DNA of 64,000 nucleotides from a virus. The notes under the pieces are model-generated. The model worked only from the letters and a program-made list of their open reading frames with translations, was not told the DNA's origin and ran no database searches. The stretch spans positions 1 to 64,000 of the IMG/VR virus record IMGVR_UViG_3300037840_000148. One strand, 5' to 3'. Below are positions 16,019 through 62,938 of the stretch, piece by piece. The position numbers were made by a program, and so were the translations under genes. Position 1 is the stretch's first letter, and each line of letters begins with the position of its first letter.

Positions 16019-18028
16019 ATGAAAAGTTTGAGAGCCGCTGTACTTTCTTTAATTCTGCCGATTTTACTCCTAGCTGCACCTACCATTTTTGCACAAAACC
16101 CCACCCAACAAGTCTCAACAGGCACGATAACCGCTGTTAGTACTGGCTGCACGTTAGTCAATACTGCGGGCTGCGTAGTTCTTCCTCTCCCTAATAATAA
16201 TCGTATGGCTGTCGCTGTTACAGTCACGGGAACGTTCAGCGGGACTTTGAATTTCATTGGAACTAATGCCACGTTGCCTTTTGCTACTGCTTTGGCAATG
16301 ACTCCGTTGGCTGGTGGAAGCACGGTTATCACGGCGACTGTGGCAGGTACTTGGAATAACGCCAGCATTGGTGGTTTGACTATCGTCGGGGTATATGCAT
16401 CTGCACTGGCTTCAGGAACGCCGACAGTCACCATTACTTCTTCAACTACGTCCGGTTCTTCGACAGGTGGTGGTGCTCTGCAGTTTCAAAACGCCGGGGC
16501 CGGATTAGGGTCTGCTGGGACTTTTAATTGCAGCACGAATTTGACTTGCACTATCACTGGCGGCGTCTTAACTATTGTTTCTAGTAGTAGCGGCACCACG
16601 ACCAACCAGGTTCTTAACGGTGTGCCGGTTAATACGAACGGCACATCTACGGCTTTGAACTCTGTTGTTTGTACACCGCCCACGGCAAATGGCCAATATC
16701 CGTTTCTTTACAACATTACCGCGAGCGCGACAGCGCAGCCAACCTGCCCACTTCTCGGCCTCTCTGCGGATCAGGCGGCGGGAGCAGCGGTTCTTTATAG
16801 CGACAACGGAAGCGTCATGTACAATCCGGCGTCTGCGCTGTCCCTGCCGAACACGGCATCCCTCGGCAATCCGAATTTCTATACAGTATCGCAGCAAAAC
16901 GCAAATGCCGTAGTGGTGACGCCCGCGAGCCCATTTAATATCGCGCTGGATGGCGGTGCGGCTGGAACCAGCCAAGCCCCTGCTACACTGCCGTATCACA
17001 CGCGATGCGGCTGGATGATAGACCAAGTAGCTTCGACCCAATGGGACATCGACTGTTGGAACGTGTACGGCTTCTTTGGCGGGATAGCGGTTCCGACATC
17101 GGCAACTGGATTGGCAACAAATTCTTCAGGTGGTTTGGTTCAACAGACCGGAGCGAATATCAGTTCTATCGTTCAAGGCTTGACCGGCTGCAACACGGCA
17201 ACCTACACGTACACCCCGCAGGCGAATGATTGTGTAGCTCCATCTGGCGGCGCAGCGTTCTCTGCCATCACTGGAGGGACGAATACGACGGCGGCAATGG
17301 TTCTTGGCTCTGGATCATCGTTGGCATTGAGCGGGACTGGCGCTGTAAACTTGAGTGCAGGTGGCGTTGGTGGCCTCGTTCTTCCAGCGATCACCAGCAA
17401 CACCGGCGCAGTTACCGGAGAACTATACTCCTATACCACAGGCGGTAATACTTGCCTCTTGGCCCCTCAAACGGCGATTGGATTTTGGTGTCTAGCGGTT
17501 GTTGGTGGTTCTGGAAGCACGAACACTGTTTGCGTTAATCAAGTTATTACTGCGCTATATTCGTATGCATCACCGACCTGTACTTCTCTCAGCGATGTCC
17601 TGACTGTTGCCAATGCCTATACAAACGCAACTACTACACCATCTAGCGTTGTAGGGCTAACGGCGGCTCTTTCCGCGAATACAGCCTATGCGATTTCCTG
17701 TCATATCGTTTTTCAAGGTTCGGCAACGACAACCGGATTATTGCTGTCAAGCACAGGGCCAGCCTCGCCAACAAAAGTAACCGCCAGCCTTCGTGCAACG
17801 ACTACAACCGGAGCGGCGGCAGTAACGTGGGCTGGCGCTTCGGATGGAACGACATTTGCGTTTTCTCTGGGACCAACGACCTTAGTTACGACCGGAGCCG
17901 ATCTTGGCGCTGATTTGAATGTAGGAATAATCAATGGCACGAACGCCGGGACATTTCAATTGCAAGCAGCAGCAGCCGGGACTGGAACGGTAACTATTCA
18001 ACCGGGTAGCACATGCACAAAGGAATAA
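16019..18028 (+). CDS. Secreted fibre/adhesin-like protein
   Basis: Signal peptide ending IFA-Q; very Thr/Gly/Ser-rich with many Cys. Confidence 0.75.
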   Translation: MKSLRAAVLSLILPILLLAAPTIFAQNPTQQVSTGTITAVSTGCTLVNTAGCVVLPLPNNNRMAVAVTVTGTFSGTLNFIGTNATLPFATALAMTPLAGGSTVITATVAGTWNNASIGGLTIVGVYASALASGTPTVTITSSTTSGSSTGGGALQFQNAGAGLGSAGTFNCSTNLTCTITGGVLTIVSSSSGTTTNQVLNGVPVNTNGTSTALNSVVCTPPTANGQYPFLYNITASATAQPTCPLLGLSADQAAGAAVLYSDNGSVMYNPASALSLPNTASLGNPNFYTVSQQNANAVVVTPASPFNIALDGGAAGTSQAPATLPYHTRCGWMIDQVASTQWDIDCWNVYGFFGGIAVPTSATGLATNSSGGLVQQTGANISSIVQGLTGCNTATYTYTPQANDCVAPSGGAAFSAITGGTNTTAAMVLGSGSSLALSGTGAVNLSAGGVGGLVLPAITSNTGAVTGELYSYTTGGNTCLLAPQTAIGFWCLAVVGGSGSTNTVCVNQVITALYSYASPTCTSLSDVLTVANAYTNATTTPSSVVGLTAALSANTAYAISCHIVFQGSATTTGLLLSSTGPASPTKVTASLRATTTTGAAAVTWAGASDGTTFAFSLGPTTLVTTGADLGADLNVGIINGTNAGTFQLQAAAAGTGTVTIQPGSTCTKE

Positions 18029-21000
18029 AGTATATTTTTCTCCTGATTGTCTTACTGATCCCAAGCCATGCATGGGCGACCTTCAGTGTCGTGCAGTCCG
18101 TGTTTAACAATTCCTGCGGCGCTGTGACGAGTTGCAGCATCACGGTATCAGCGATTGGGGCCGGGCATCTTGGAGTTGTACTCATACACAATGGAAACAC
18201 GTCAACTCTTTCGAGTGTCACCGCAGCGGGAGAAACATTTTCCTTGCTCGTGGCCGGAGGAACAAGTTGCCACTTTCAAGGCGGCGGCAATACAACCGAC
18301 ATGGGATGCGCCTACACTCTCAAAACTGTTGGAGGCGCTATTACCGTCACCTGCAATTGGAGTGGGACGACGGGCGCATCGAACACAAGTTGTGGATTTT
18401 ATGAGATCGCCTACACCACGAATTGCGGGGCAGAGCCAAGTATATTCCTAGAAAGCAACGTCACCAATGGGCAGGACACTTCCGCATCCACGAATCTCCT
18501 GGGAGTTGACTTCACTGCAAGCTACCCGAAATTTATAAACGGATCAAACGATATAATCTTCCAGTTGACGAACGTCTCCACCGGAACAGTTTCATCCATA
18601 AACACATCGTTCGTGTTGGACAACAACACCGGGCAGGTAGCTGACGCGCATCGACTGAATACGTTCGACATGACTGTGCCGACTTGGACGAACAGCGTAT
18701 CCGCGACTGCACTAGTCTCGGCTATTTCGTTTGGCGAGAACTTCTGCTCGCCTCTGACGACATTCCCAAACTCTCCAACGGGACTGTCAGCTATATATTC
18801 AGGGGCGCAAGGTTCTAGCGGAACGCAAACGCTTGCTATCACCTCCGCTGGCCTGTTCGAGTTGGTGTTCGACAACGCGGACAATTGGGGAATCGACGGA
18901 TGGTACGATCTCGTCAATGATCCTACACTGACTACGAACCTTCTCAGTCCGGCCTGTCCGGTTGGAACTGGAAATGCCTGCACCCTGCCTGGGAGCTTGA
19001 ATTCCGCAGAGCCGGGGCTGTTTCAGCGAACTTATTATGACTTTGGTGATGTGAAGCAGTATGGGAAACCATCCCATGCTTATTTCCCCAATATGTCGCG
19101 CTCATTGAATGTGCTCGAATACAACCCCAGCCGGATAGTGGTTGAAACCAAGTCGATGCCCGCAGCCACAGCATCCACGATATTCAACAATCTAACAGGA
19201 ACGACACGGTATTACATCTATCCGAACGGGCAGATTTACGTTCACCACGTAGCCACCGTAACGAACGCTGCCACGATAGCCACAACCGGAACGCCAATTT
19301 TCAGCGATGTCACTCTGGAAGACCCTACTCAATTGGGAACCACGCCGCCAGATTCGATTGGCTGGATACGTGCAACAGCAAGCGGCAATCCTTGGAGCGG
19401 AAGTGGACCTGTTGACCCCTATATCTTTGCCTATTGGGGACCGGGAACGACTGGGACATATCAGTTTTACACGAAGGCCAGCATCATGCTCGTTCGTAGT
19501 CCAAACAATCTCTACGATAATTCGCAAATCATCCATAGCTGGCAGTCGGGAACTGGATACGGTGTAGTGCGCTGGGGATGGAGTACAAATAACGCAATCA
19601 TCGCATTAGGGGCTGGCGGAACTGAAACCGAGGACATGCTGATCCAGCTTGGCACACAAGGTAGCACGGTGCTTCCCAACATCACATCGAGCACAGTGGC
19701 GGGACCAATCGCAACGGCCTACATCAATAATCCAACTCCGCCTCCAGTTCAAGACGTGTCACCGTCAGTGAATGTAAATACCACTTCTCAATTCACGACG
19801 AATGATTCTGGCGGTACGTACGCCTGTGCAAACACATCCAACGGCGGGACTTGTCTAGGCAGCGTCAACTCCAGCACGGGACTCTATACAGCTCCAGCAA
19901 GTTTGATCGCTCCGCAATCGCTCGGCGGGTATCCATTGCGGCCCAATGATGATGTATTCAATGTGAACATTTCAGGGCTGTCTGCGGCATCAAATTCGGC
20001 GACGATTATGGCGGCGGTAGGAAGCGTACCTGTAAACTTTTTGCCATCATTTCCAATCAACTACGTCACTCCATCGACCACCACAACCTCAATGGTGTTC
20101 AAGAGCACGCCAAATAATAATGGGACTTTCCAGACTCCAGTATGGCCTCTAGCAAACGTGGAAAACGGTTGGTGGGATTCGCTCGTGGGAAACACTACGA
20201 GCGACCATCACATCCGAATGATTGATACGACCACCGGGAACTTAACCGAGATTTATCAGTGGTTCGCGCAGGCTCCCGTACCAAGCTGCACGGTCAATGG
20301 ATCGAATTCAGCAACCTGTACGATCACCTCTACAAATACCTCGGCTGGATTCGTGCGGGCGGCTGCGCTTGGAAAGTCGGTTTTGCTGACAGGATGGACG
20401 AGCGGTGATACCTACCTTAACGGTACATTCACGCTAACTTCCGCAACTTCTACATCGATCACATTCAATATTTCGCATGCGACGGCATCAACGACCACGA
20501 GCGGTTCTGCTTCGCTCATAACGTCTTGCGTGTTGGCGACCTGCAACGCGGTCTCTGGAATGCAATATCTCAACACTGACTACGGATTGCCTGTTAATGG
20601 CTCTGTTGACGCTGCCGGTCTTCCACTTTCTCCACTTACCTTAAATGCCCAGGAAGTAGTGAATGCGGTAGCGAACGGCACGGCCATTACTCACGCGCTA
20701 CGAATGACACTCCAAAATGGATTCATCTGCGGGTCAAGCACGGCTAGCGCGTGTCCTGTGGGCTCCGTGAGTAATGCCGCAGGTACAAGACATATCTGGC
20801 CCGCGACATCGGAAGCCTTCGCTGGCGGTGGTATCGTTCCCTATGGTACGAGATTCCGCCTGAAATCGGCTTTCAACATCTCTAGTTTCTCTGCGGGCGC
20901 ACAAGTCCTATTAACGCAAATGAAAAATTATGGTCTCATCCTCGCTGACGGTGGAGGGGGATGGCAAATCACTTCTGACTTCGACAACCTTCCCGCTTCA

Positions 21001-21984
21001 GCCGCCGCCGTGATGCAAGAAATCAACAATGCCAATATCGCCACGTCAAATTGGGAAGTCGTGGACGAATCGAGTTTGATGGAGACGACGCTATCCGGCG
21101 CAACAACAACCGGGGAGATTGTCACCTACACACAATCAAGCGGATCGGCCAGCGCGAATGTCGGTTTGATGGGCACGGCGGTAAATGTTGGAACGCAGCA
21201 GTTTTACATAATGGCAGGGACTCCAGCGCAGCAGCTTCCTTATTATTCAAATGGCGCGGTGACCTGCACGATGTCTCCTACGGTCGGCTCGATCACATCT
21301 GGATGTCTCTACACGCCCCCTGGATCGGAAGCGTCCGTTACAACTACCACGGTGACGGTGACCAGCAACGCAAACGGCTCGGTAAAGGCCCAGATGACGG
21401 TATACGTGACCCCAGCGGTAATTCGGCTTCTGCAAGCTACCTCTGACTACACAGACTCTTTGACCCACGTTTGGTACAGCAGTAATCACTATGGCGTCGG
21501 CATGTCGAATGTCCCTTCGTGGCCGGGATGCTGCAATAACAATTCCTCGATCACTGGAACTGACAAGCAACTATTTTGGAATCACCTTTTGAATACGGCT
21601 GGTACACGAAACGATTACAAGATGGACATTCACCTCCCAAACGGTGTTTATCAGATCGTGTTCAATAACGGTACTTATCTTACGCTTGGGCAAGATGTTC
21701 GCAATTTCTATGTGCAAGGGGCACTGGCGGCAACCATAGATTCAGTGGCCGTCGCGGGAACTAACGCACAGTGGTTTCAGACATTCAGCGCTACCGTAAT
21801 CAACAACGTGCTATCGTTTTACAACACAGGAATTGGCCAGCAGGCCAAGGATAGTGGGGACGTTTCTTCAATTTCCATTAGTCAGACATCCTCGAACATT
21901 CCAACAGCCCCAATCAAGGCAGGCGTGCTCTTATCGGAGAAACAAGCACCAGATAATTGGATATTGACACAATCAGGAAATTAA
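18013..21984 (+). CDS. Secreted multi-domain adhesin-like protein (Ig-like repeats, C-terminal malectin-like domain)
   Basis: Signal peptide ending AWA-T; GS....GLYTAP Ig-like repeats; YTDS...W..., LPNG.Y.I.F, R.F.VQG C-terminal pattern. Confidence 0.72.
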   Translation: MHKGIKYIFLLIVLLIPSHAWATFSVVQSVFNNSCGAVTSCSITVSAIGAGHLGVVLIHNGNTSTLSSVTAAGETFSLLVAGGTSCHFQGGGNTTDMGCAYTLKTVGGAITVTCNWSGTTGASNTSCGFYEIAYTTNCGAEPSIFLESNVTNGQDTSASTNLLGVDFTASYPKFINGSNDIIFQLTNVSTGTVSSINTSFVLDNNTGQVADAHRLNTFDMTVPTWTNSVSATALVSAISFGENFCSPLTTFPNSPTGLSAIYSGAQGSSGTQTLAITSAGLFELVFDNADNWGIDGWYDLVNDPTLTTNLLSPACPVGTGNACTLPGSLNSAEPGLFQRTYYDFGDVKQYGKPSHAYFPNMSRSLNVLEYNPSRIVVETKSMPAATASTIFNNLTGTTRYYIYPNGQIYVHHVATVTNAATIATTGTPIFSDVTLEDPTQLGTTPPDSIGWIRATASGNPWSGSGPVDPYIFAYWGPGTTGTYQFYTKASIMLVRSPNNLYDNSQIIHSWQSGTGYGVVRWGWSTNNAIIALGAGGTETEDMLIQLGTQGSTVLPNITSSTVAGPIATAYINNPTPPPVQDVSPSVNVNTTSQFTTNDSGGTYACANTSNGGTCLGSVNSSTGLYTAPASLIAPQSLGGYPLRPNDDVFNVNISGLSAASNSATIMAAVGSVPVNFLPSFPINYVTPSTTTTSMVFKSTPNNNGTFQTPVWPLANVENGWWDSLVGNTTSDHHIRMIDTTTGNLTEIYQWFAQAPVPSCTVNGSNSATCTITSTNTSAGFVRAAALGKSVLLTGWTSGDTYLNGTFTLTSATSTSITFNISHATASTTTSGSASLITSCVLATCNAVSGMQYLNTDYGLPVNGSVDAAGLPLSPLTLNAQEVVNAVANGTAITHALRMTLQNGFICGSSTASACPVGSVSNAAGTRHIWPATSEAFAGGGIVPYGTRFRLKSAFNISSFSAGAQVLLTQMKNYGLILADGGGGWQITSDFDNLPASAAAVMQEINNANIATSNWEVVDESSLMETTLSGATTTGEIVTYTQSSGSASANVGLMGTAVNVGTQQFYIMAGTPAQQLPYYSNGAVTCTMSPTVGSITSGCLYTPPGSEASVTTTTVTVTSNANGSVKAQMTVYVTPAVIRLLQATSDYTDSLTHVWYSSNHYGVGMSNVPSWPGCCNNNSSITGTDKQLFWNHLLNTAGTRNDYKMDIHLPNGVYQIVFNNGTYLTLGQDVRNFYVQGALAATIDSVAVAGTNAQWFQTFSATVINNVLSFYNTGIGQQAKDSGDVSSISISQTSSNIPTAPIKAGVLLSEKQAPDNWILTQSGN

Positions 21985-21999
21985 ATAACCAGGAGAAAC

Positions 22000-22374
22000 A
22001 TGAAAAAATTCTTAGCAGCATTTCTATTCGTCGCTTTTTCAGCCGTCGCAGCATCTGCGCAATCGGCAATTCCGCCTGCCGGAACCCCGCACAACGTCCA
22101 AGCTACATGGACAGCCCCGACAACACCGGGTGGCTCAGGAGTAATTGCAGGATACAACATCTATCGAGCGGGTGTTTCTTACACGAAGATTAATACCGCG
22201 TTGAATACCACGACGTCTTTTGTAGACACGACGGTAGTTTCCGGCGCGACGTATAGCTATTGTGTCACGACCGTTGACTCAAAGAATGAAGAGTCCGCGT
22301 GTTCGCTTCCGGCATCGACGACAATTCCGGCCAACCCGAATGGGCCTACAACTATTATCATCGTAACTCAGTAA
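22000..22374 (+). CDS. Secreted single fibronectin type III domain protein
   Basis: Signal peptide ending ASA-Q; V..TW.AP, GYNIYR, F.DTTV..G.TY.Y.V..VD...ES..S. Confidence 0.85.
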   Translation: MKKFLAAFLFVAFSAVAASAQSAIPPAGTPHNVQATWTAPTTPGGSGVIAGYNIYRAGVSYTKINTALNTTTSFVDTTVVSGATYSYCVTTVDSKNEESACSLPASTTIPANPNGPTTIIIVTQ

Positions 22375-22381
22375 GGATCAA

Positions 22382-23461
22382 ATGGCAAATTCGCAAAGCA
22401 CGGTCACGCTCCAGCAGGAATGTGACATACTCCAAGGATATGGGGACCTGGAGCCGATTCTAAATGTTGCGGGACAAACTTCGACTGCAGTTTTGACGGC
22501 CGCCAACAATGTAATGAGCGCCATACATGCGGTAGCATTCCCGCATAAATGGGCAGAGGCTAATGCTCCTCTTTTCTATACAAATTCTTTGCAGCAAGAT
22601 TATGCCGCGGTATATCCGAACGGCCAGTCGTTAACTAATTTGTCCTGGCTTGAACGTGGAATTTGTATTGATATAAACAATATTGCACAGCCAAAACCAT
22701 ATCGTTTGATTGAAACAGGCAGAGAGCTTAGTCAGGCAACCGGTAGTGTATTCGATGCTAGCAACAGTAATAGTCCGGCATTTCTAGTCAACTGGATTCC
22801 TAATAATGTTTTGTATTATGGAATATGGGGTCAAGCCAATACTGGAACATCGACCTTAGGAAATAATCCTGTCGCGGGCTCTGTTTATACGCCGCTTGTA
22901 TCGCTTGGTGGCAGCATGCCTTTGAATCCAATCATGCAGATCCAAGACGCTAACGGAAATCTGTTAGTGTTGACTGGGTTTGGGACCGAGGGTTCAGCGG
23001 CCCCAGTTCTTCCAGTCAATTCTACTCCCGGTACAACGGTTTCAGGAAGCGGGGCTACAACGGTGTGGACGGTTGTAGATCCTTATGGGGTCGGTTTTAG
23101 AATTCTTCCTGTTCCCGTGCAAAGTGGAGTTACGTGGCAGTTTAATCTTGTTTATCAAATGAAGCCAGTAAGGTTCACCAGTCTTGGTCAAACTCTCGCT
23201 CCATTTCCAGATGAATTTGAACCGCATTTTCAGATGGGCTTGATTGCGCAACTTTATCGTTTTTCTCCGATGAAAGCCGTGTACGAAAAATTTCCCGCAG
23301 CATGGCAATTGTGGTTGAAATCATTGCAAGAACTTCGGTCACGAGAAGATCGTGAAACTGAAGAAAATATTTTTGTCCCGGATCGGGGAATAATGGGAGG
23401 AACGGCTGGAAGAAATAAGTTTATGGGGCCAGCTTATCCGTTCAATTATCCGAGCAGATAA
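22382..23461 (+). CDS. Head-tail adaptor-like protein 1
   Basis: N-terminal AAN.V....PHKW and C-terminal PFPDEF...F helical motifs typical of adaptors; position. Confidence 0.6.
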   Translation: MANSQSTVTLQQECDILQGYGDLEPILNVAGQTSTAVLTAANNVMSAIHAVAFPHKWAEANAPLFYTNSLQQDYAAVYPNGQSLTNLSWLERGICIDINNIAQPKPYRLIETGRELSQATGSVFDASNSNSPAFLVNWIPNNVLYYGIWGQANTGTSTLGNNPVAGSVYTPLVSLGGSMPLNPIMQIQDANGNLLVLTGFGTEGSAAPVLPVNSTPGTTVSGSGATTVWTVVDPYGVGFRILPVPVQSGVTWQFNLVYQMKPVRFTSLGQTLAPFPDEFEPHFQMGLIAQLYRFSPMKAVYEKFPAAWQLWLKSLQELRSREDRETEENIFVPDRGIMGGTAGRNKFMGPAYPFNYPSR

Positions 23462-23502
23462 TCTTTATTATCAACAAGTTACAGACGTTTTAAGGAATAA
23501 AA

Positions 23503-24438
23503 TTGTCGAATACTATTTTTACAACAATTAATTTTGCCCAAGCCTTAATTAATTATGCTCCGTTGACTTATGGAATCGGGAGCGAGCCTGCGATCACGAT
23601 TGCTTCGATGATTCGTAACTCTTTTCTAAATAGCCCGTTAAGTTGGTCGTGGAACCGTTTTGAGGATAGTAGCACTACGATCACTTCGGCAAATACGGAT
23701 TATACAGTTAATTTAACAAATTTCGGTTGGCTTGAGCGCGTTGTATTAACGGACGGAAGCGGAAACACACAAGAAATTAAAGAGATTTATAACACGCTGT
23801 CCTTGGCAAAGAATAAAGTTTCGCAACGGCCTAGCGCTGTGTCTGTATTAATAAATACACCCGGCACGAGCGTAAAGATTCGTTTCAATTCTACGCCAGA
23901 TCAAAGCTACACAGCCACCTTAATTTACCAAGGTTTGGCGACTCAGTTCGGACCTTTTGTTATCAACTCATCGGCTAACGCGGCTGGTGGAAATACGGCA
24001 TATACCGGGATATTTACTCCGGCGTCATTTCCGACAGGGTCGACAGCCACAATCGCGGGATTCACGACCAACGCAGTTAATAACGGTACGTTTTTAGTTG
24101 TGTCTTGTACATCCACTATTTTGACGGTTGCAAATGCCTCGGGTATCGCCGAGACGCCCGCAAACGCCACAGCAATTAATGGGAGTTGGGCACCAATTCC
24201 TGATCAGTATAGTGATGTTTATACTTCACTCTTTTTATCTGAAGCGTTTCAGTCCGTTGGTTATGATGCCGAGGCGGCTAGATATCGTCAGCGCGGAGTC
24301 GCAGCAATGCTTGCGAAAGCCGAAGGCTTGACTCAAGCACAAATTAGCGCTTGGACTTTGCAGTGGTTACAGCGAGATACAATGGCTCAAGCCAGTCAGT
24401 TAAGAACTGCCCAAGGAAATCAGGCCCGCGGAATTTAA
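23503..24438 (+). CDS. Head-tail adaptor-like protein 2 with inserted beta domain
   Basis: PLSWSWN, RP......IR...TPDQ.Y, PIPDQY motifs; TTG start with AAGGA RBS. Confidence 0.6.
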   Translation: MSNTIFTTINFAQALINYAPLTYGIGSEPAITIASMIRNSFLNSPLSWSWNRFEDSSTTITSANTDYTVNLTNFGWLERVVLTDGSGNTQEIKEIYNTLSLAKNKVSQRPSAVSVLINTPGTSVKIRFNSTPDQSYTATLIYQGLATQFGPFVINSSANAAGGNTAYTGIFTPASFPTGSTATIAGFTTNAVNNGTFLVVSCTSTILTVANASGIAETPANATAINGSWAPIPDQYSDVYTSLFLSEAFQSVGYDAEAARYRQRGVAAMLAKAEGLTQAQISAWTLQWLQRDTMAQASQLRTAQGNQARGI

Positions 24439-24446
24439 GGATATAA

Positions 24447-27400
24447 ATGGATTTACTAGCAGGAGCAGGCGCAAGGTCAATCAAGGAAATTCCTTTTGCG
24501 CCGTTATTCATAGAAGATTTATGGCCTGGTTTGTATACAAACCGTTCTGCGCTCCATGACCCTAGCGGTCTTTATGAGCGTCGATACATGGGCGGCAGGC
24601 CCGGTAGCTTGATTGGCGGTCAGAATGTCGAGATTACAGTCCGGAATACAATCGGCCGCCGTTTTGGTTTAACGCCGTTTTCAATCGGGACATATCCTAC
24701 TCAACCAATCAGGGCTTTTTCATTCGAAGACGTTACCGGTTTAATCAGAGTCTTGATTGATACCGGAACGACCGGTTTGCTGACAGTTACTTCGGCAGCC
24801 AATGCTAGTGGCATCACGACCGTTTATACCGGAGTATTTCCGGCCGGTGCTGTAAATGCCTACGCCGGGATGTATTTTCAGATTCAAGGCTTCACAACGA
24901 ACGCATCAAATAACGGCGTATTTCTATGCACGGCATCAACCGCAACAACGTTGACTTTACAGAATCCGCAAGGCATCGCGGAAACTAACCCGGCGCAGGC
25001 AATTTCTTCCGGCGCGGTCTACTATGATCCACAAATTGGTGTGCCTTTGCTTTTGAAAGGCAAGCAACCGAATGCCCAACAGTCTTATTTTGTCGCTGTC
25101 GCCGGGATTTGTTATGTCGGTGACGGTGTCGAGACGTGGACTTATGTCCCGTATAATGTCAATGGGACCGTCTGGAATTGGGGAATTCAACCACCGACAT
25201 CCGCGCCGAGCGTGAACGTAGTACAGAGCGGTTCGGCGTCCGTTTTGTGGACCGCTAGTACAGTCTGGTCGACGATGGGCTTGATTTATGACTCAGCCAG
25301 CGGGACTATCCTGCAGCTACACTCCGTTAACGCCAGCAACGCCAACACGACACAATTTGGTTCAACAGGACCGGGTGTTCCTACCGGCGGATGGAATACG
25401 TCCTTTAATGGCACGACGACTGACGGTTCAGTAACGTGGCAAAATAACGGAATCATAACTTCATGGTCGGCAAATACTAGGTTTGCCAGCGTGTTCGCTG
25501 CGTATAATAATCTTCCGGAAGTCATCTACGACCCAGTTACAAAAGCCATCTACGTTAATGTCTCGACAGCAACTGTCGGCGGTTATACCGGTTATTACAC
25601 AGGTAGCCAGGTACCGAATTTTAAAGCCGGTAACGGCCAGACGACGGTAGATAATCAATGCTTGTGGCAATATGTTGGAACGCCTGGTGTACTGCCGACA
25701 TGGGCTGCCTCGACTACATACCCGACATTTTTAGTTAGCCGCGGTAATCCTCCGGTAGGCAATTATCAAGCAGCGACAGTCACGGAGCCTTTGAGTTTAT
25801 TGTTCGGTTTGCCGACTAGTCAGCCGGTTTATTGGCAAGTTGTTAAGGTCGGTGGAACGTCGGGCTCATCGGGCGTTGCGCCGTTTGGTTCGACGGTTGT
25901 TCTGGCTGGATCGATTATCGGTGATAACGGCGATACACTTTGGCTATCACTGGGCTCAGGAACATGGGCCGCAACAACCGGTTATAGCGGTTGGACTGCG
26001 CCCGGGTCGATATTTAGTGCATTGAAAGATTCCAACGGAAATTTTCAAGTCTGTACTACAACTGGCGTGAGTGGCGGGACTCAACCAACGTGGGGTTCGA
26101 CATACGGAGCCACAACGACAGACGGCACGGTTGTATGGACATGCGTCGGGACATCAATGGGCTGGACATCAAATACCAAATGGTATCTTCCGTCGACCGG
26201 TTTCTATCCTCCGCAGACAAGTGGGACTAGCAGTGCGTCATACGGCGGGGCATCAATCATAGATTCCAACGGCGATATCGAGTTTATTATCAATAGCGGT
26301 TTAGGCGGCGCAAGTCACCCGACATGGAATTCAGTCGGTGGATACACGGCAGATTCTGGAACGGCGTTGGTTTTAACGCAAGTCACGGTCGGCGCGACCA
26401 CCGCGACGTATACAGGGACAATCACGGGCGGCGCTGCGAACGGCTTGGTAGGTAAGACGTTTCTTATCGGCGGATTTACTAACGCTGGAAATAACGCCCT
26501 GATTAATGTCACGGCGTCAACCGGCTCAACTTTGGTGTGTTCTTTGACAAGTCAGGTTAATGAAACGAATCCCGGAACTGCGCATCAAAACGCAATTTGG
26601 TATAATCTTGAGGTTAAACCTGCCCAATCCTTGGGTTGGACGAAAGGCTATTCTTACGCATATTCATATAAATCCCGTAATCTTCTGGATTTTTATTCTG
26701 TTCCGTCCGGTAGTCCGTTAGCTATCCCGACACCCCCGGGTCAATCAAGCCCATTACCAGCGCCGACCGGTAGTTTGTTAGGCGCGGTATCGACGGCTTC
26801 ACCGGCATTTACAGTTACGGGTGGAAACGCCGGTGCCGTAAATACGGTTTCAGGACTCGGTTCGACCGATCCGCAAGTCGACACTATTGTAATTTGGCGA
26901 AGCGCTGACGGCGGCGGTTCAAGCAATATGTTTGAACTGACGGAAATTCCTGCGCCACAACCAGTCAACGGTGTCGCCCGTCCGTGGTCGTTTCAAGATT
27001 TCCTGCCGGATTTACCGACATCCGTATTCCCTGGTTTGAACGAGCTTATTTCTGCGCCAATCGATGAAGTCAATAATCCGCCGCTCGCGACATTTCTCCC
27101 GATGGAGTATAATTTCGAACGTATCTGGGGTGCAACAGGACAACAGGTGTTGTTTTCTGGTGGTCCGGATACTTTGGTAGGTAATCCACAAGCGGCTTTT
27201 AATCCTGCAGACGAGTTTCCATTTTTGTCGAATGTCTTAAGGATTGTCAAGACGACACAAGGTTCGGTTGTATATACAGCCAACAGCCTAGAAATTATTC
27301 TCGGCGGTCCTGCTACGGCTAGTTTTTTCAGTGTTACTTTAGCTCCGGGTATCGGTCTAGGCAACTATAACGCTCTTGATGTCTATATGGGTGAGCAGTT

Positions 27401-28160
27401 TTTTATGGACGCGACAGGCCAACTCCAGGTAGTGTCTCCGACACTGTCTGTCACCGCGGCCGGTTTCCCGATTGCTGATCAACTCATGAAATTCAACCCG
27501 AAGACGGCATATATTACGTTCGCTGATTTGCCGAACGACACCGGGATTTATATCGGAACAGGCAGCACGACCTATAACGGCGCTACAGGTTGGTTCAGGA
27601 TGGCCCCCCGTCAGATCCCCGGTGGTATTAACGGTCCCGAGCCTGTCTGGAGCCCTTTTGCCGCGATTACGAACGGCTGCCAGCTATTACAGGCTGTCGA
27701 AACGACGCCAGGTATTAAAAAGCTGCTTGTCGGCCCTGCGTTAGCCGGGGAAGAGATTTTAAAGCGTGACCCGACCGTCTATACAGACGACGGCACGCCT
27801 TTTGATGCCAACTTCCAGTTAGGTTCGTTGTGGCTTGTCCGTCGCGGCGAGTTGGCTATCCTGAAGTTCCTTGAGTCGGATTTCTCGATGAATACCAACC
27901 CGACAGTTTCATATCTTTTGAATGAAATTTCTGGGACATTTAATAGCTTCGTGACATCACAGGCGTTATTTGATCCGCCGGTTCTATACGGCAAAATCAA
28001 AGCCCCGACATCCTACGTCCCGTTGCGTTTTTATTTCTCATCGACCGGTTCGTTGGCTTTGGCTGTTCATATGCAAGTCGGATTTGATTTTGGAACTACT
28101 GCGAATGCCGACGAGTGTTTCAATTTCACGATTTATGGCGCAATAAGTAAGGGACACTAA
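24447..28160 (+). CDS. Tail tubular/nozzle-like protein with inserted carbohydrate-binding-like repeats
   Basis: QNVEI...NTI.RR.G N-terminus; ERIWG...V.FS C-terminal propeller-like part; repeated TTTDG.V.W modules. Confidence 0.65.
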   Translation: MDLLAGAGARSIKEIPFAPLFIEDLWPGLYTNRSALHDPSGLYERRYMGGRPGSLIGGQNVEITVRNTIGRRFGLTPFSIGTYPTQPIRAFSFEDVTGLIRVLIDTGTTGLLTVTSAANASGITTVYTGVFPAGAVNAYAGMYFQIQGFTTNASNNGVFLCTASTATTLTLQNPQGIAETNPAQAISSGAVYYDPQIGVPLLLKGKQPNAQQSYFVAVAGICYVGDGVETWTYVPYNVNGTVWNWGIQPPTSAPSVNVVQSGSASVLWTASTVWSTMGLIYDSASGTILQLHSVNASNANTTQFGSTGPGVPTGGWNTSFNGTTTDGSVTWQNNGIITSWSANTRFASVFAAYNNLPEVIYDPVTKAIYVNVSTATVGGYTGYYTGSQVPNFKAGNGQTTVDNQCLWQYVGTPGVLPTWAASTTYPTFLVSRGNPPVGNYQAATVTEPLSLLFGLPTSQPVYWQVVKVGGTSGSSGVAPFGSTVVLAGSIIGDNGDTLWLSLGSGTWAATTGYSGWTAPGSIFSALKDSNGNFQVCTTTGVSGGTQPTWGSTYGATTTDGTVVWTCVGTSMGWTSNTKWYLPSTGFYPPQTSGTSSASYGGASIIDSNGDIEFIINSGLGGASHPTWNSVGGYTADSGTALVLTQVTVGATTATYTGTITGGAANGLVGKTFLIGGFTNAGNNALINVTASTGSTLVCSLTSQVNETNPGTAHQNAIWYNLEVKPAQSLGWTKGYSYAYSYKSRNLLDFYSVPSGSPLAIPTPPGQSSPLPAPTGSLLGAVSTASPAFTVTGGNAGAVNTVSGLGSTDPQVDTIVIWRSADGGGSSNMFELTEIPAPQPVNGVARPWSFQDFLPDLPTSVFPGLNELISAPIDEVNNPPLATFLPMEYNFERIWGATGQQVLFSGGPDTLVGNPQAAFNPADEFPFLSNVLRIVKTTQGSVVYTANSLEIILGGPATASFFSVTLAPGIGLGNYNALDVYMGEQFFMDATGQLQVVSPTLSVTAAGFPIADQLMKFNPKTAYITFADLPNDTGIYIGTGSTTYNGATGWFRMAPRQIPGGINGPEPVWSPFAAITNGCQLLQAVETTPGIKKLLVGPALAGEEILKRDPTVYTDDGTPFDANFQLGSLWLVRRGELAILKFLESDFSMNTNPTVSYLLNEISGTFNSFVTSQALFDPPVLYGKIKAPTSYVPLRFYFSSTGSLALAVHMQVGFDFGTTANADECFNFTIYGAISKGH

Positions 28161-28169
28161 GGGACGCTA

Positions 28170-29825
28170 ATGGCCGATCAACCAAACAATTTGATAGCCG
28201 CCGACGATCCTGCGCTAGATGAAGTGAAGTTTATCCAACGAGAGCCGATATTAGCTAGCCAACCGCCCGGGACAGCGCCGTCAGTAAACGACCCTTTTCA
28301 AGGCGCTATCATCAGCCAGATTGGTTTGCAGACAGATACCGCGGATTCTCAATTAGCCGGGCATCTTCCGATTTATCGTTTGATGCCGTCATCGGTCGCT
28401 GGTTCCGCTACGGCCGTATCAGCAGCTACGTCGACATTATTAAAGAACCCCGAGTTTGTCACAGCACAAGCGCAAATAGAACAAAATACAGTCGCGATTG
28501 CGAACATCCAAACCCAGAATATATTTCTCGGTGCATGGAGCGCAACGACGGCATACGTTGCTGGAAATCAGGTCACGGAAGCCGGTGGTTATTACATCTG
28601 TATTTTAGCAAATATCAACCAGATGCCGCCGAACGTGACGTATTGGCAGCTTGTTTCGACAACAAATACGACTGTCTTTCTTGGCGCTTATAATGGCGCT
28701 ACAGCTTATGTCCCTGGTAACCAAGTTACCTATCAAGGTTCGTATTGGATTTGTATTGCGAACTCGACGGGTAACGCGCCATCAACTACATCGACTTTCT
28801 GGACGTTGGTCGGGACGTCTGTAATCTTGATTGGCGCATGGAATTCAGGTACTGCGTATGTTCAAGGAAATGAAGTTACTTTCAGCGGGAATGTCTATCA
28901 GTGCATCTTAGCGAATACAAACCAAACGCCGCCGAATGTGACGTATTGGCTTTTGATTGGTCCGGCAAGTCTAGACAATGTTCCTGACGGTACGACTAGA
29001 TTTGCGGCTACCGGTTCGACGCTTTCGTATGTCCCGACGTCTAATCCACTAACTGCATCCGCCGGTGTATCAAACGCAACTATTACGGTTTTATCGTTTA
29101 CGATGCGAACGAGCAGTAAGGGTGACATCTCTATTACCGGCAGTTCTATAACGTTGTTGTCTTATTCAACTTTATACTATATTTATTATGACGACCCAAC
29201 TTTAGCGGGTGGTTCGGTAACGTTTGTTCCTACAACTACTAAAGCTACAGCAATTCAAGGCGCGGGAAGATTTTTTGTCGGATCGATTGTTACTCCGGCA
29301 GCGACCGCGCCTAATACAACGGGCAATAACGACGGCGGTGTCGGAGCGCAAGGCGGAAGCACCAGCGTATTTTTATTTGGTGCTTTTACTAATACCGGCG
29401 CAACGATTGATCCGACTTTATCAAATCCACAAAATGCGTTTGATGGCGATCTGACAACTTTTGCGTCCGTCGTTCAAACAAATTCCGCGTCAACGACCGT
29501 AAATGGCGGGATGATTCTTCAAGCCGCCACCCCGACATCAGCTCCTTGGTCAAGTTTGATTTTATACGTCTTGACGTCGGTTACAGGAACTAGTGGAGTA
29601 CATAATAGCGCTACAGTCGATATATCTCTCGACGGCGGTAATTCATATACAACTTTATTTACTGTCACGGATAGTAATCGAGCACAAACAACCGATCAAA
29701 TGACTTTATCGAATAACCAAAATCTTGCTCTTGTGCGAGTTAGATGTCGAACAGCCGGAGACGGCGTAGCCACAGGCGCGGTCACACTCAATATTTATGA
29801 AGCATATGTAGAAGGTATAATCTAA
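28170..29825 (+). CDS. Tail fibre-like protein with three CBM5/12-like repeats
   Basis: 3x GAW...TAYV.GN.VT..G..Y.CI.AN....P......W. Confidence 0.7.
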   Translation: MADQPNNLIAADDPALDEVKFIQREPILASQPPGTAPSVNDPFQGAIISQIGLQTDTADSQLAGHLPIYRLMPSSVAGSATAVSAATSTLLKNPEFVTAQAQIEQNTVAIANIQTQNIFLGAWSATTAYVAGNQVTEAGGYYICILANINQMPPNVTYWQLVSTTNTTVFLGAYNGATAYVPGNQVTYQGSYWICIANSTGNAPSTTSTFWTLVGTSVILIGAWNSGTAYVQGNEVTFSGNVYQCILANTNQTPPNVTYWLLIGPASLDNVPDGTTRFAATGSTLSYVPTSNPLTASAGVSNATITVLSFTMRTSSKGDISITGSSITLLSYSTLYYIYYDDPTLAGGSVTFVPTTTKATAIQGAGRFFVGSIVTPAATAPNTTGNNDGGVGAQGGSTSVFLFGAFTNTGATIDPTLSNPQNAFDGDLTTFASVVQTNSASTTVNGGMILQAATPTSAPWSSLILYVLTSVTGTSGVHNSATVDISLDGGNSYTTLFTVTDSNRAQTTDQMTLSNNQNLALVRVRCRTAGDGVATGAVTLNIYEAYVEGII

Positions 29826-30115
29826 TGATTGAAAAATCGATTGATAAAGAGTACGGGACGGTTAATTCTTCCGCAGAGATTTTTTATACTGATAACGGTC
29901 AAGCCGTAATACATATCACGTCTACGCTCGGTGAAGCACGACACGAACACCGCATAACTGTCGGTTCGGAAGACGGCCGAGATATGGTTGGGTCGTTATC
30001 AGAAGATGAATTGAAAGCTTCATTACAGAAACATCTTGATGAAAAGCGACAACAAGCCGCCGATATCTTAAACGGTCGTGCAAAGGTAGCTAAAGTCGCC
30101 TTGGGGTTGAATTAA
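29825..30115 (+). CDS. Hypothetical protein (fibre chaperone-like position)
   Basis: 96 aa, TAATG coupling. Confidence 0.6.
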   Translation: MIEKSIDKEYGTVNSSAEIFYTDNGQAVIHITSTLGEARHEHRITVGSEDGRDMVGSLSEDELKASLQKHLDEKRQQAADILNGRAKVAKVALGLN

Positions 30116-30591
30116 TGGCAAGAACACCTGAAACAATAGCGGGTCGTTTTAGTAATCCGCTTGTTTTGAATTTGATTGAAATTACTGCGCCCGGCGATCC
30201 GCTGATTTGGCGACTCAGTCAGAATTCTGTCCCGTGGTTTTTCGGGACTGTCAACCCGTCGTCCATTACTGGGTTTTTGAATAATGATTTTTACATGAAT
30301 GTCACGACCGGCGCAATATGGCAACTTCAGTCCGGTCTTTGGATTAACATTCCGTCCGGCGGATCTAATGGCGGCGCTTACGCGGCGACTTTTTCAAACC
30401 AAACATCGTTGGTTATTACTGGTGTGACACACGCGTTGGGAACCGCAGATTTAATAGTTGCAATTTACGATTCAGCAACCGGAACTAGAAATTTGATAAT
30501 TCCGAACTCTGTCTCGATAGACAGCACGACATACGACGTCACGGTGACATTCGAAGCGGCACAAAGCGGAAGAATTGTTATACAGGGATAA
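30115..30591 (+). CDS. Virion structural protein
   Basis: DFY.N..TG..W and TH.LG..D..V..YD.....V.F....SG patterns of phage fibre modules. Confidence 0.65.
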   Translation: MARTPETIAGRFSNPLVLNLIEITAPGDPLIWRLSQNSVPWFFGTVNPSSITGFLNNDFYMNVTTGAIWQLQSGLWINIPSGGSNGGAYAATFSNQTSLVITGVTHALGTADLIVAIYDSATGTRNLIIPNSVSIDSTTYDVTVTFEAAQSGRIVIQG

Positions 30592-30601
30592 CATAGATAA
30601 T

Positions 30602-33600
30602 ATGAAGAAATTATTTTCAGTTTTATTTTTTACTGTCTTGTTTGCTATCAATGTTTCTGCGCAGCAAAAAGTAAATGGCGGTTTGTCTATCCGAGGTCCA
30701 ATTCCTTATAGAGATATCACGGCATATATGCCTGTCGGTGGATGCGACAACGCAAATCTATCCGGTGGCCAAGAGCACGGAACGATTAACGCATCATCGA
30801 ATTCTCTGACTTTGGTTGGTGGAGGCGGGTCATACTACGCTAATGGATGCGGGGTGTTCGTAGCCGGGGCAGGGCCTCTTTCGACGCTTTCGACTCCCAC
30901 GCAAGGGGCTGCTCCTAATCCGACCACTCCCGTAGGAATGACTTCCGGTTCCACCACCGTGCATTACAAAGTAGCTGCGATTGACCCGCAATACGGCACT
31001 TCAGCAGCGAGCGCGGCATTGACGATCACCACAGCGCCATCGACACGTACGCCGATTGATTACGTCGGAATCTACTGGACGGCGGTCAACGGTGCGGTCG
31101 GCTATCTCGTTTATACAGATAATAATGGTGGAGGAACTTACGTCCCTCTTGGATATTCTTTTGATTGTACTGCATTTTCTGCTGGTGGAATCTGCGGCGC
31201 GATTGATAAAGGAGTCGAAACGAACAGTTGGGTTGGCGGGACTGCGGCGATGTGGCCGGGAGCGCCTCCAGGATCGGTGACAGGACAAGCTCTAATCACC
31301 ACGATAACATCAGGTGGCGGCACTGGAGCTTTGACCCTTGCGGCGACAGCCACAACATCTGTAACCCAAGCATTTACGTGGCCGGATGAGTCAATGTTTA
31401 TCGGGCAGGCCATTTCGGATGCGAACAGCGATGGCGACAATTCGCACCACAATAAAGGGACGGTATTTATTCCGAAGGGGGTTTGGTATACCGACACAAT
31501 CCCGTATCCCGGCGGCTATACAGAAGGAGTCCAGATAAATCTGTCTGGAGAAGTTGTTTTGTTTGGATTGCCTGTATACGGCGGCCTTGCTAGTGGAGGA
31601 ACCGGAAGAGTGTCAATCAGCGGGCACGATTGTGGGGATTACGGCGCAAATAATTACGTGATGAACGGTTGCACGATTGCGGGTTCTACATATCTCGGAG
31701 CTCTTTTTGTCACACAAGGCTCAAACAGCGGATTGAATTTAGATCATGTATCGGTGTCCCCATTTCAGGGTGGAATTGTCCAAGATTCGCAAGGCGACGT
31801 GACCACAAAGGACGTAAATTTCGTCTTTTCGACTTCCAGCACCGGACTCATGCTCCAAATTGATAATAACGTGTATTTCAGCGTCTATGACCACAGCAAC
31901 TGGAACGATGGCGCTAACAGCACCGCAAATAATATCCCGATGATCTGGTTTTTGGGACTGACGAGTACGGCTCACAGCAGCGATTTCATATTCAACAACA
32001 ACACATTCGTTGCTCATACGGTCAGAATGGATCAAGCCTTTCCGGGCGGGGGCGGTCCTTCATCTCCAGTAGTTTTTAGCGGCCTTACATCTATAGAGGA
32101 TAATTGGGATCCGGGATTTGTGACTACAGCAACCAACAATTATGTTCAGTCGTGGACAATCGACAATGTGAACACCGGAGATGCGAATGCTGTCCAATCG
32201 CTCATGTACGGTTATGCCGGTTACAGCAACACGATAGCTGGTAACCAGATATTTGTGCATGGGCAGACCTTTGGTTTCTCCAGCCTCATTAGCAGTTCAG
32301 CGCAAACGGTAGCAGACACAAAATGCTTTTGGGTTGTCGATAGTGAAAACCAGCCAGGAGCAGGCTTTGAAAGCTTAGGATACTGGGGAAATATTTATAA
32401 TGGAACGTATACAGGTTGCGATTATGGAATCACGTTATTGGGGCCGGATGTTCAGACTACCGAAGTATTGACCTCGGGAGGAAACTCCGCTGGCGGAACT
32501 GCCGGAGAACAGATGATTGGCCACATCATCCGGCGTCCATCAGTAACGACCAGCGCAAGTTCAGGATCGCTCTCAGCGGCGACCTACTACATCAAAGTCA
32601 CCTTCAAAGATGTGGCTGGACGTGAGGGCGGGGCAAGCCCGGAAGTATCGCAGGTAGTAGGCGCATCGGGTTCGGTGGTGGTTACGGCAACCGGAACCAT
32701 TTATTTTCCGGCAAGCTGTAATGTTTATTACGGGACATCTGCGGGCGGAGAAGCTAATTATTTCAATTCGACTACCGTTACGAATGGAACCTGTACATAT
32801 ACATTAACAACAACTTCCGGGGCGTCGTCAGGAACGCCTCCCCCAGTCGGAAATGCCATGAATACGTGGTTGACGGAAGAAAATAATGCCAACTCGTGTC
32901 TATATTGCGGTTTTAGCGGCGGATTAGGGACGGGATTTATCGGGTTTAATCTCAATGCCGCACAATACGCCGCGGTTCCTTCTGGCGTTCAGTTTCCGTT
33001 CAATGGCGGCGTGCATACATATAAATTCTTTTCAGGTTCCGAAACAACCGCACCGACAGGGGCTTCCGGAATAGACCAATTGTGGGCGGATTCTACCGCA
33101 CACGGATGGAAGATTAATCCAAACAATTCCGGTGCTCAGTTACTTGCTGGTTTCGGATCGACTCCGACAAACGGCGATTGTGCAAATATTTCCGTTGTAG
33201 GCGGCGTTGTTAGCTTAGGTGATGCCGGGGCTGCTTGCGGAGCGAGCGGCGGCGGTCTGAATACCAATATGAACAACATGGCAAATCCGACTGCGATGAG
33301 CCAGAGCCTTATTCCTGGTGCTGCGAATAGTATAGCATTAGGTTCACAGGCGTTGCCTTTTACAAATGGGTTTTTCGGGACGGTTGCAAATCAAAGCGGA
33401 TCATTCAATACTGCTAATTTGACAGCCAATCGAGTTATCAACTGGCCGGACGCAACGTCCACGACAGTCCGAGCTTGTGCGTCTGTATCAAATCAGTTCT
33501 TAACTGCGATTGCGGTAGCAACCGGCATTTGCAGTCAAGCACAACCGACGTTAGCAAATATCGCCGCCGGAGCTTCGCCTAGTGGGTTGTTTGATTTCAG

Positions 33601-57511: not shown

Positions 57512-58136
57512 TCCTCAATTCATATGTCCCGAGTTCAGCGACACATGTAAATAGCGTCCGGTCCCACTCAAGTTGTTTATCTACGTAATAATGCCCAAAA
57601 CACCACTCTTTCGGTTGATGGATATCAAACATCGCCTGTAAAGCTTCGGCTGTTCTGGACATCGAGCACTCCATCTTAGCCGTGAAATACGGCCCGACTA
57701 AAGTCATAAGAAGCATTTTAGCTATTTTAGACGGCGCTTCGTGCGACAAAACAAACTTCGGCTTGACAGTTTCATAAAAATCAATAGCTTTTTGAAGCTC
57801 TTCGTAACTCAATTCTTCATCCGGCCACCATGAAACGCCTGTTTGGCGCACCATTCTGTCAATTGAAAATGCCCCGGCGAGCCAGAATAGTTCATACTCA
57901 GGTAGGTATCCCCAATCACCGAGATAATTCGGGTGCTTTCGGCACTTCTCCGGATTATCGTGATTCCCCCGGAACCATTTATGGTCCTGGGACATATTAT
58001 GGACGACTACACCAGAAAAGCCGACGCCCATATCGCCAACTTGGATGCTTTTTTGACCATCCGGAAGATTACGAACTAAACGCTTATAGTCTCCAGTCTT
58101 CCCGTGGACATCTCCAATAACGACAATTTTAGTCAT
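57459..58136 (-). CDS. Calcineurin-like metallophosphoesterase
   Basis: GDVHG, QVGDMG, GNHD, GAFSID, SHEAP, FGH. Confidence 0.9.
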   Translation of the reverse strand: MTKIVVIGDVHGKTGDYKRLVRNLPDGQKSIQVGDMGVGFSGVVVHNMSQDHKWFRGNHDNPEKCRKHPNYLGDWGYLPEYELFWLAGAFSIDRMVRQTGVSWWPDEELSYEELQKAIDFYETVKPKFVLSHEAPSKIAKMLLMTLVGPYFTAKMECSMSRTAEALQAMFDIHQPKEWCFGHYYVDKQLEWDRTLFTCVAELGTYELRIDNKDEKDDGQETPKRV

Positions 58137-59058
58137 GTTGATCTCGATACCAATCGATTGTACGCCTTAAACCCGTCATTATATCAGTCTTTGGCTGGAA
58201 GTCAAGTAATTTCTTTGATCTAGATGTATCTAGACACCGCCTTGGTTGACCGTCTGGCTTATCTCGGTGAGTAAAAAATGGCCACTTATAACCAATAATT
58301 TCAGCTATTCTTTCTGCTATCCCAAAAATCGAAATTTCTTCACCGCTGCCGAGGTTAATTGGATCAGGCTCATTATAGATTTCCATCGCTTTGACAATCG
58401 CTTCGGCACAATCTTCAACATAAAGAAAGTCGCGTGTTGTAAGACCGGAACCCCACATATCAACAAACTTCTCATTATTCTTGACTGCGAAATCAATTTT
58501 CTTAATCAATGCCGGAATAACGTGACTTGTTTCAGAATCGAAGTTATCCCCCGGCCCGTAAAGATTTGTCGGGATCAAATAGATTGAATTAAAAAGATAT
58601 TGCTGACGTAATGCCTGACTATACGTCAATAATAGCTTCTTAGCCAGACCGTATGGCGCGTTTGTTTCCTCCGGATAGCCATTATGGATGTCTTCTTCCT
58701 TGAACGGCACCGACGTCATTTTAGGGTAGGAACAAACAGTCCCGACAGTCACGAGTTTCTCGATGTCGAAGTCTTTCGCGGCTCTCATTATTTCCAAACC
58801 CATCACGGCATTATCATATAGAAAGTCAGCCGGACTAGTTTGATTCGCACCGATTCCACCGACGTTAGCGGCTAAATGGATTACTATTTCCGGACCTTCT
58901 ATCGAAAACATCCCGTCAACGTCTGTTTGATTTGTAAGATCATACCGTTCGTGTGACGGAACAATGACGTCTGAATACCCCCGTTCCCACAGCTTCTGAC
59001 AGACGTGCTTGCCGAGAAAGCCGTGACCGCCGGTGACTAAAATACGTTTACTTAGCAT
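58129..59058 (-). CDS. fcl: GDP-L-fucose synthase
   Basis: [38 protein letters not shown]...[15 protein letters not shown]. Confidence 0.95.
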
Positions 59059-62935: not shown

Positions 62936-62938
62936 AAT

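Follow-up and report, generated by a model that had tools for sequence, protein, structure and literature searches.

The ORF at positions 22000–22374 on the plus strand of the window, the stretch of 64,000 nucleotides analysed here, encodes an exported protein of 124 aa whose FN3 domain begins at strand B and whose C-terminal tail is a homologue of the strand A that the domain lacks. This arrangement suggests a split-FN3 plug-and-socket system in which the 124-aa protein would act as an adaptor or chain unit, a reading to which we give an even chance. Binding, chain length, cellular location and biological role, where they are given below, are what we infer for this protein.

The window covers the first 64 kb of a phage contig that is complete at 110.8 kb and has direct terminal repeats, and among its products are a large terminase, a portal of the SU10 type and a protein resembling a major head protein. 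The phage infects soil Acidobacteria, and its nearest isolated relative is the Acidobacteria phage Tunturi_3 of Tunturiibacter (36% portal identity). The ORF of interest, judged from its sequence to be a genuine gene, starts 15 nt past the stop of the gene encoding a 1323-aa protein and ends 7 nt before the next gene. The features of the gene and its product are as follows:

22000–22374, + strand: small exported FN3 ORF, 124 aa
21991–21995, + strand: Shine-Dalgarno sequence AGGAG, 5 nt before the ATG, read from the sequence
22000–22059, + strand: signal peptide MKKFLAAFLFVAFSAVAASA, predicted cleavage between ASA and Q, from the sequence pattern and the presence of a leader in all relatives
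22060–22335, + strand: mature FN3 core, strands B to G, from Pfam, the AlphaFold2 model, VIA-align and the array profile
22336–22371, + strand: C-terminal tail PNGPTTIIIVTQ, orphan homologue of strand A whose distance to the stop is fixed

Residues 1–20 are predicted to be a Sec-type signal peptide with an MKK start, a hydrophobic core and the ASA/Q cleavage site. The mature N-terminus that follows (QSAIPPAGTP) is a Pro/Gly-rich stretch of 10 residues that forms no strand A. The Pfam fn3 family (PF00041) matches residues 29–102 at profile positions 12–78 of 84 (E 5.4e-4, 20.5 bits against a cut-off of 25), and a phmmer search with the 124-aa protein returned 9001 matches at E up to 1e-3, mostly tandem FN3 arrays. 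The AlphaFold2 model of the mature protein, built from a 13-sequence alignment, features strands B, C, C', E, F and G at residues 10–17, 29–37, 41–47, 53–60, 64–73 and 85–88 of the mature numbering and a short tail strand at 98–101; residues 1–9 are unstructured and an N-terminal strand is absent. VIA-align places model residue 9/10 on canonical FN3 residues 18–20 (Z 8.5–9.4, rmsd ~2 Å over ~80 residues). The top 50 VIA-align matches are all FN3 in both runs, one with Foldseek candidates and the other an independent search of 48,161 chains. Against a reference profile of 92 positions, built from 100 complete tandem-array repeats, the core aligns from position 16 onwards. The protein is assigned to FN3 by its sandwich of strands B, C, C', E, F and G, which is superposable on solved FN3 domains in a model with a pLDDT of only 76. 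Because the Pfam span, the model, VIA-align and the array profile agree, the FN3 domain is taken to begin at strand B. A strand A pairing with strand B is absent from the N-terminus in the model, in VIA-align and in the profile, and its homologue sits C-terminally; the core is a fold without one edge strand, one of several features of donor-strand subunits.

The best phmmer matches are giant tandem FN3 arrays, in which the query from residue ~31 to residues 117–122 covers one period in shifted register. The alignment is ungapped, with IPANPNGPTTIII lying over 'avPtaPtslsI', which consists of the linker and of strand A in the array repeat that follows, and the linker from strand G to strand A has the same length in the 124-aa protein as in the covalent tandem arrays. 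Since the array alignments run ungapped, the tail is a strand-A homologue on a linker of native length; since this linker is as short as in the arrays, the protein's own slot lies beyond the reach of the tail in the native direction. An earlier note on this DNA had claimed that the mature protein starts at FN3 strand B, that the tail is A-strand-like and that the linker is too short for self-completion in the normal orientation. The first claim is borne out by the four comparisons above and the second by the ungapped alignment to the strand A of the next repeat. The third also holds, with a linker of tandem-array length and a strand A that starts opposite the end of strand G.

A strand-A PSSM made from the first 13 columns of the complete array repeats has a median of −16.3 bits over the C-termini of the 130 phage ORFs. 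The tail of the 124-aa protein scores −0.3 bits and ranks third of the 130; it is the weakest of its family, in which the relatives reach 7–19 bits, and this score counts against the plug-and-socket reading. C-termini of the PxxP plus strand type are found in only two of the 130 ORFs, those encoding the 124-aa FN3 protein and a 674-aa protein described below. The inventory of the phage is one strand-A-less FN3 and two clear tails, both of the tails on proteins with signal peptides. Across 24 loci, 21 of 411 ORFs score at least 4 bits with the PSSM, 18 of them FN3-tail genes and the other three enzymes of MAG G004. Given the count of two in 130 ORFs and the conservation described below, the tail feature is not due to chance. 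When the tail was placed before the core and compared with the full-length FN3 profile, the alignment still began at position 16 and shuffled tails scored equally, a result that is uninformative because the rebuilt A–B loop is ~10 residues longer than in the arrays.

In the monomer model, tail residues 98–101 are in a strand/bridge state within the same chain at a pLDDT of ~67. This agrees with a self-completing, permutation-like monomer, which we consider rather unlikely. In such a monomer the tail would pair with the protein's own strand B in the reverse of the native A direction, giving an ordinary secreted FN3 module that serves, for example, in carbohydrate binding or as a spacer for a neighbouring enzyme. 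By topology reasoning, the end of strand G shares a pole with the A–B turn, and the 7–9-residue linker could reach the slot in reverse; type V pilins also have a self-complementing monomer state (PMC13655056). Foldseek matches of the FN3 model to CBM20 starch-binding domains over the full model length, with an rmsd of 4.4–5 Å, are a weak hint of a fold-back topology. However, the confidence of the tail in the model is low, the linker is no longer than in the covalent arrays, the same tail is carried by FN3-free beta-helix enzymes in which it is modelled free, and in two longer relatives (P0005 and P0295) the chain runs on from the tail into another domain. In AlphaFold monomers, established donor-strand subunits are often shown with the donor strand folded back on its own chain, and for this reason the fold-back in the monomer model is not diagnostic.

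The family sample of 55 sequences (48 distinct cores) draws on protein databases, on 13 species-representative genomes, of which 12 are Acidobacteriota, and on contigs from IMG/VR (3) and metagenomes (37). At identities of 36–57%, signal peptide, strand-B start and tail are all conserved among the 48 distinct relatives. The leader is hydrophobic in all relatives and ends in AxA before Q(G), and in all family members it is followed by 8–10 residues patterned G(I/L/V)PxGTxH and then by the strand-B tryptophan. The tail is laid out as P-N-x-P plus 8 residues and then the stop, and all but one of the 48 distinct cores (47/48) end exactly 12 residues after the start of PNxP, with 20 different tails. 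The linker residues P, N, P, N and P do not vary across the 13-sequence alignment, nor do two cysteines, one in strand F and one at the start of strand G, a pair that fits an oxidising, exported location.

Several variants depart from this layout. Relatives on metagenome contigs (L061, L062–L064 and L065) contain a Cys in the tail (PSGC or PTGC) and a CxxxC motif in the C–C' loop and are without the F–G Cys pair; these three cysteines of the mature protein could form a disulfide lock of the tail. P0005 (199 aa) and P0295 (234 aa) encode a second domain of ~80 residues after the tail, ending in CQSQ(K/A)AM. Their 'tail' is probably the first strand of that second domain, and the two proteins may represent an ancestral two-domain form. 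The 575-aa protein P0124 appears to be a longer, acceptor-only form, with a first FN3 that starts at strand B right after the signal peptide, five later FN3 repeats with normal A strands, and no C-terminal tail.

The gene lies beside a set of further exported proteins, and the neighbours that bear on its function are:

16019–18028, + strand: 669-aa protein, N-terminus resembling a signal peptide, opens the exported block 16019–22374, no family match
18013–21984, + strand: 1323-aa exported protein directly upstream of the FN3 gene, C-terminus QAPDNWILTQSGN weakly A-like
22382–23461, + strand: 359-aa protein in the SU10-type adaptor position by synteny only, no Pfam match itself
30575–34429, + strand: 1284-aa exported protein, likely start 30602, orthologue of a ~1147-aa prophage protein
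34398–36422, + strand: 674-aa exported beta-helix protein, depolymerase-like, from homologues, model and Foldseek
36381–36419, + strand: tail PNPPSGLHVIIEN of the 674-aa protein, orphan strand A, from PSSM, homologues and model

In all longer related loci, the small FN3 gene follows the gene of the ~1147-aa exported protein, which exhibits 44–60% identity to the product of window ORF 30575–34429. In small prophages, an SU10-type adaptor gene (PF24175, SU10_adaptor) directly follows the FN3 gene, and this position between a large exported protein and the adaptor gene is kept in two different phage lineages. The placement bears on whether the gene is an evolutionary remnant, that is, a fragment of a tandem FN3 array in shifted register with a functionless tail. 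The stretch that runs from strand B through the following A equals precisely one array period in shifted register, and odd variants such as P0020 are found on short contigs, both of which suit a remnant. Against it stand the stop position kept among the 48 distinct sequences in spite of their divergence, the invariant prolines and asparagines of the linker and the retained gene place, and we regard a remnant as very improbable.

No covariation was found between the FN3 tail and the C-terminus of the ~1147-aa neighbour in related prophages. That C-terminus (ITPEMFLVELKQ) is nearly invariant, scores −13.6 bits, is not A-like and has the appearance of the final strand of the domain it belongs to. 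A conserved neighbour without an A-like or covarying C-terminus counts against the plug-and-socket reading. Within 10 kb in the small prophages, no donor or acceptor is seen apart from the FN3 protein, and its partners there would therefore be itself or host proteins. A search of GenBank phage records did not provide a match to the 124-aa FN3 protein or to the 674-aa protein.

The 674-aa protein carries the other clear tail of the phage. Its C-terminus scores 10.5 bits with the strand-A PSSM and ranks first of the 130. The protein belongs to a family of exported beta-helix enzymes with more than 700 database matches, in which many homologues at 42–64% identity carry Pectate_lyase_3 (PF12708), although the window protein itself has no Pfam match at E up to 0.01. 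A signal peptide is predicted in 105 of its 120 best homologues. Among the 108 sampled homologues with a short C-terminal extension, 77 end exactly in P-x-x-[LVIFM]-x5-COOH; the consensus of this tail is PAPPTGLTATV followed by H, Q or N, and 71 of the 77 finish in one of these three residues. The model of the 674-aa protein has a confident beta-helix core, and its residues 659–674 have a pLDDT below 50 and no secondary structure. Foldseek with this model gave phage capsule depolymerases and tailspikes as the best hits (E 1.5e-10, with a TM-score of only ~0.33), and its model suggests an enzyme rather than an adhesin. A search for members of the 674-aa family in which the tail is followed by a complete FN3 in the same chain found none, the longer homologues carrying other Ig-like domains. 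Eleven viral loci with 674-aa relatives contain longer or shortened forms, and neither tails nor small FN3 genes were found in them.

Turning to the large partners, the earlier note had proposed that the beta-helix protein ends in the same free strand as the FN3 protein, which stands on the PSSM rank, the 77 of 108 homologues and the disordered tail of the model. It had further described the large proteins as interchangeable tip adhesins. The free strand is retained for the 674-aa protein and the adhesin role is dropped, since the large partners look depolymerase-like in Foldseek. For the 1323-aa protein, two free strands had been named. The motif PNSPTGLSAIY is internal in this protein and cannot for that reason be a free strand, and PTAPIKAGVLL is followed by 17 more residues and is no free C-terminal strand either. 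The true C-terminus, QAPDNWILTQSGN, scores −2.0 to 1.6 bits (rank 5 of 130). The 1323-aa protein has no sequence match in Pfam, PHROGs or PDB and no close relatives in IMG/VR, and PDB sequences gave no match for the three large proteins. The C-terminus of the 1284-aa protein scores −9.7 bits and is not A-like; that this protein is fibre or beta-helix-like is a lead only.

Signal-peptide-like N-termini are found on the genes at 16019–18028, 18013–21984, 30575–34429 and 34398–36422 and on none of the genes at 22382–30591 that lie between. The intervening genes look like virion tail parts and include a tail-fibre match. In regions 16019–22374 and 30575–36422, five genes with Sec-type signal peptides lie inside the virion-gene block of what is a podovirus-like phage, and four of their products are large (669, 1323, 1284 and 674 aa). 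Sec signals are unusual on tailspike-like depolymerases, for which an N-terminal virion anchor is normal. Among the intervening genes, a 551-aa tail-fibre-like protein (28170–29825, + strand) features two CBM_5_12 carbohydrate-binding repeats (E 3e-14). A 1237-aa tail protein (24447–28160, + strand) has, at residues ~250–275, the beginning of an FN3-like domain whose strand A is normal (PPTSAPSVNVVQSGSASVLWTAS), and the phage therefore also has an ordinary, unsplit FN3.

Candidate acceptors are more numerous in the hosts than in the phage. Each of five prophage-carrying Acidobacteriota MAGs contains 6–8 further matches to the family profile beyond the prophage copy. In every ORF examined, the host strand-A-less FN3 is located at the C-terminus or within 4 residues of it, the tail is absent, and the Pfam match of the FN3 starts at profile position 10–12. 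The host strand-A-less FN3 is preceded directly by an ASH/HYDIN-type Ig domain, with LSGTGVQP of the Ig domain running into VSHSVTLTW of the FN3, which ends in EVSATVP and a stop. In other candidate host acceptors, which are small lipoproteins, an LAGC lipobox and then a short tether come before the strand-A-less FN3. Because many host proteins end in a tail-less, strand-A-less FN3, the phage tail is no less likely to dock onto other acceptors than to build a homopolymer.

Donors are scarcer in the same genomes. Strict-pattern tails gave one match in the five host genomes. No relative of the 674-aa protein was found in the five host MAGs, and a weak match to it was present in only 2 of 201 sampled Acidobacteriota genomes. 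The few recognisable tails count against the plug-and-socket reading, because with so few donors the host strand-A-less FN3 may be stable six-stranded variants that need no partner. One host locus combines both parts. In MAG G004, three consecutive secreted beta-helix-like proteins of 622, 533 and 537 aa (L099, G004:C14:334477–339979) are encoded in a polysaccharide-biosynthesis-type locus, and all three end in strand-A tails of 10–18 bits. Two proteins, including one lipoprotein, that terminate in a strand-A-less FN3 are encoded at L100 (G004:C14:354901–358252), which places these acceptors 15–18 kb downstream of the three tail-bearing enzymes.

The host data also bear on an alternative in which the tail is a C-terminal tag recognised by some factor for sorting, secretion or processing in the Acidobacterial envelope, with the six-stranded FN3 unrelated to it. 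The strict distance to the C-terminus and the polar last residue (H, Q, N or K) resemble many sorting signals, the host strand-A-less FN3 is always the last domain, as a C-terminal sorting domain would be, and hosts rich in this domain show few strict-pattern tails. The tag is, however, FN3 strand A residue for residue (PxxPxxLxxxV), scoring 7–24 bits against a median of −16. Moreover, the tag and an FN3 without exactly that strand share one protein, one phage and one host locus, and no candidate reader machinery was found beside the genes among the neighbours, which were partly scanned. On balance, a sorting tag is an improbable account of the tail.

In the plug-and-socket reading, the six-stranded core (B to G) would leave an open slot at the strand A position, and a tail, with a free carboxylate at its end, would insert in trans beside strand B of a strand-A-less FN3, giving a seven-stranded domain made from two chains. 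With another copy of the 124-aa protein as acceptor, the product would be a chain of beads mimicking a tandem FN3 array with a nick in each A–B loop; such a homopolymer filament is one possible outcome. The acceptor could also be a host strand-A-less FN3 at the end of lipoprotein-anchored Ig stalks, and the slot of the 124-aa protein could in turn accept tails such as that of the 674-aa depolymerase-like enzyme. Because it has both a slot and a tail, the 124-aa protein would be suited to an adaptor or extender role, joining exported enzymes that degrade polysaccharide with one another or with the cell envelope. Depolymerase-like enzymes mounted in this way could support release of progeny through exopolysaccharide or alter the cell surface. 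A broader and more tentative proposal, for which we see rather less than an even chance, is that Acidobacteriota and their phages share a non-covalent split-FN3 tag-and-catcher system. Enzyme tails would snap into the tips of lipoprotein-anchored stalks, and the phage unit with slot and tail would chain with itself or act as adaptor, mounting depolymerases on the host scaffold.

Among the closest known systems are the type V pili of Bacteroidia (FimA, Mfa1; PMC13655056, PMC4789730). There, a C-terminal donor strand replaces the N-terminal strand, the last residues are essential, and the self-complementing monomer and the strand-exchanged polymer are two states of one protein (PMC13655056). The essential end of the donor strand (PMC13655056) matches the fixed C-terminus of the 124-aa family. 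Sec export and an N-terminal strand missing from the mature acceptor are shared with the type V pili, as is the assignment of anchor, stalk, adaptor and tip roles by who carries the donor strand. The two differ in fold, with two transthyretin-like sandwiches in the pilins, FN3 in the phage protein and no sequence relation. In type V pili, gingipains open the slot by cleaving a lipoprotein precursor; in the phage protein, strand A is simply not encoded. The phage protein is also without a lipobox, no protease was seen, and its polymerisation is putative. Chaperone-usher pili (Fim, Pap, Caf1) likewise have an incomplete Ig-like sandwich that is completed by the next subunit, and their tips use the same socket. 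Their missing strand, however, is the C-terminal G and their donor an N-terminal extension, and they need a periplasmic chaperone and an outer-membrane usher, neither of which was found among the phage neighbours scanned (Pfam, PHROGs). More broadly, no chaperone, usher or precursor-plus-protease family was found with Pfam and/or PHROGs among 20 window proteins, many of which match nothing, and no assembly-factor family was found among 10 prophage neighbours, many of them without any match.

Other systems share parts of the arrangement. In covalent tandem FN3 arrays (e.g. P0021–P0031), strand B to the next A is likewise one period with the same linker; the phage units differ from these in being separate exported polypeptides, nicked in the A–B loop. 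In SpyTag/SpyCatcher, derived from a split CnaB2 domain, a detached terminal strand docks in trans and forms a covalent isopeptide bond; this is a laboratory construct, and no covalent bond is indicated for the phage protein. The cohesin–dockerin pair of cellulosomes also uses a short C-terminal module to dock unrelated secreted polysaccharide enzymes on a surface scaffold, although the dockerin is a folded calcium-binding domain that binds a cohesin face and provides no fold-completing strand. A swap of the N-terminal FN3 strand between molecules has been crystallised in a strand-swapped FN3 scaffold (PDB 4m6a). As far as the available description of this entry goes, a detached terminal strand docks in trans there as well, in what is a laboratory construct or crystal dimer. 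By analogy, the proposed split-FN3 system works like donor-strand complementation and would stand outside the type V and chaperone-usher families, because the fold differs, the missing strand is another than in chaperone-usher pilins, and a chaperone, usher, lipobox or protease was not found among the proteins scanned.

Donor-strand complementation is known from pili with dedicated pilin folds, and the full-text literature searched provided no description of an FN3 donor-strand or split-FN3 docking system. If the plug-and-socket reading is true, the very common FN3 domain would be seen here for the first time as a natural plug and socket of two chains, and one that joins enzymes, adaptors and anchors beyond the building of fibres only. 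It would explain both the C-terminal tag on most of the sampled 674-aa homologues (77/108) and the many terminal strand-A-less FN3 domains. It would also show a route by which phages plug depolymerases into a host system and offer a small natural protein-ligation pair for engineering.

Two further regions of the window were noted. At 39690–44897 (+ strand), a 1735-aa protein exhibits a match to DUF7178 (E 9e-15) and is preceded by an 808-aa protein rich in Ala, Pro and Gln; the two are probably internal or ejected virion proteins. On the minus strand at 58129–63777, a run of genes has N-termini that, judged by eye, resemble NAD-dependent sugar-nucleotide dehydratase/epimerase enzymes and glycosyltransferases, and this region may be a sugar-modification island of the phage.
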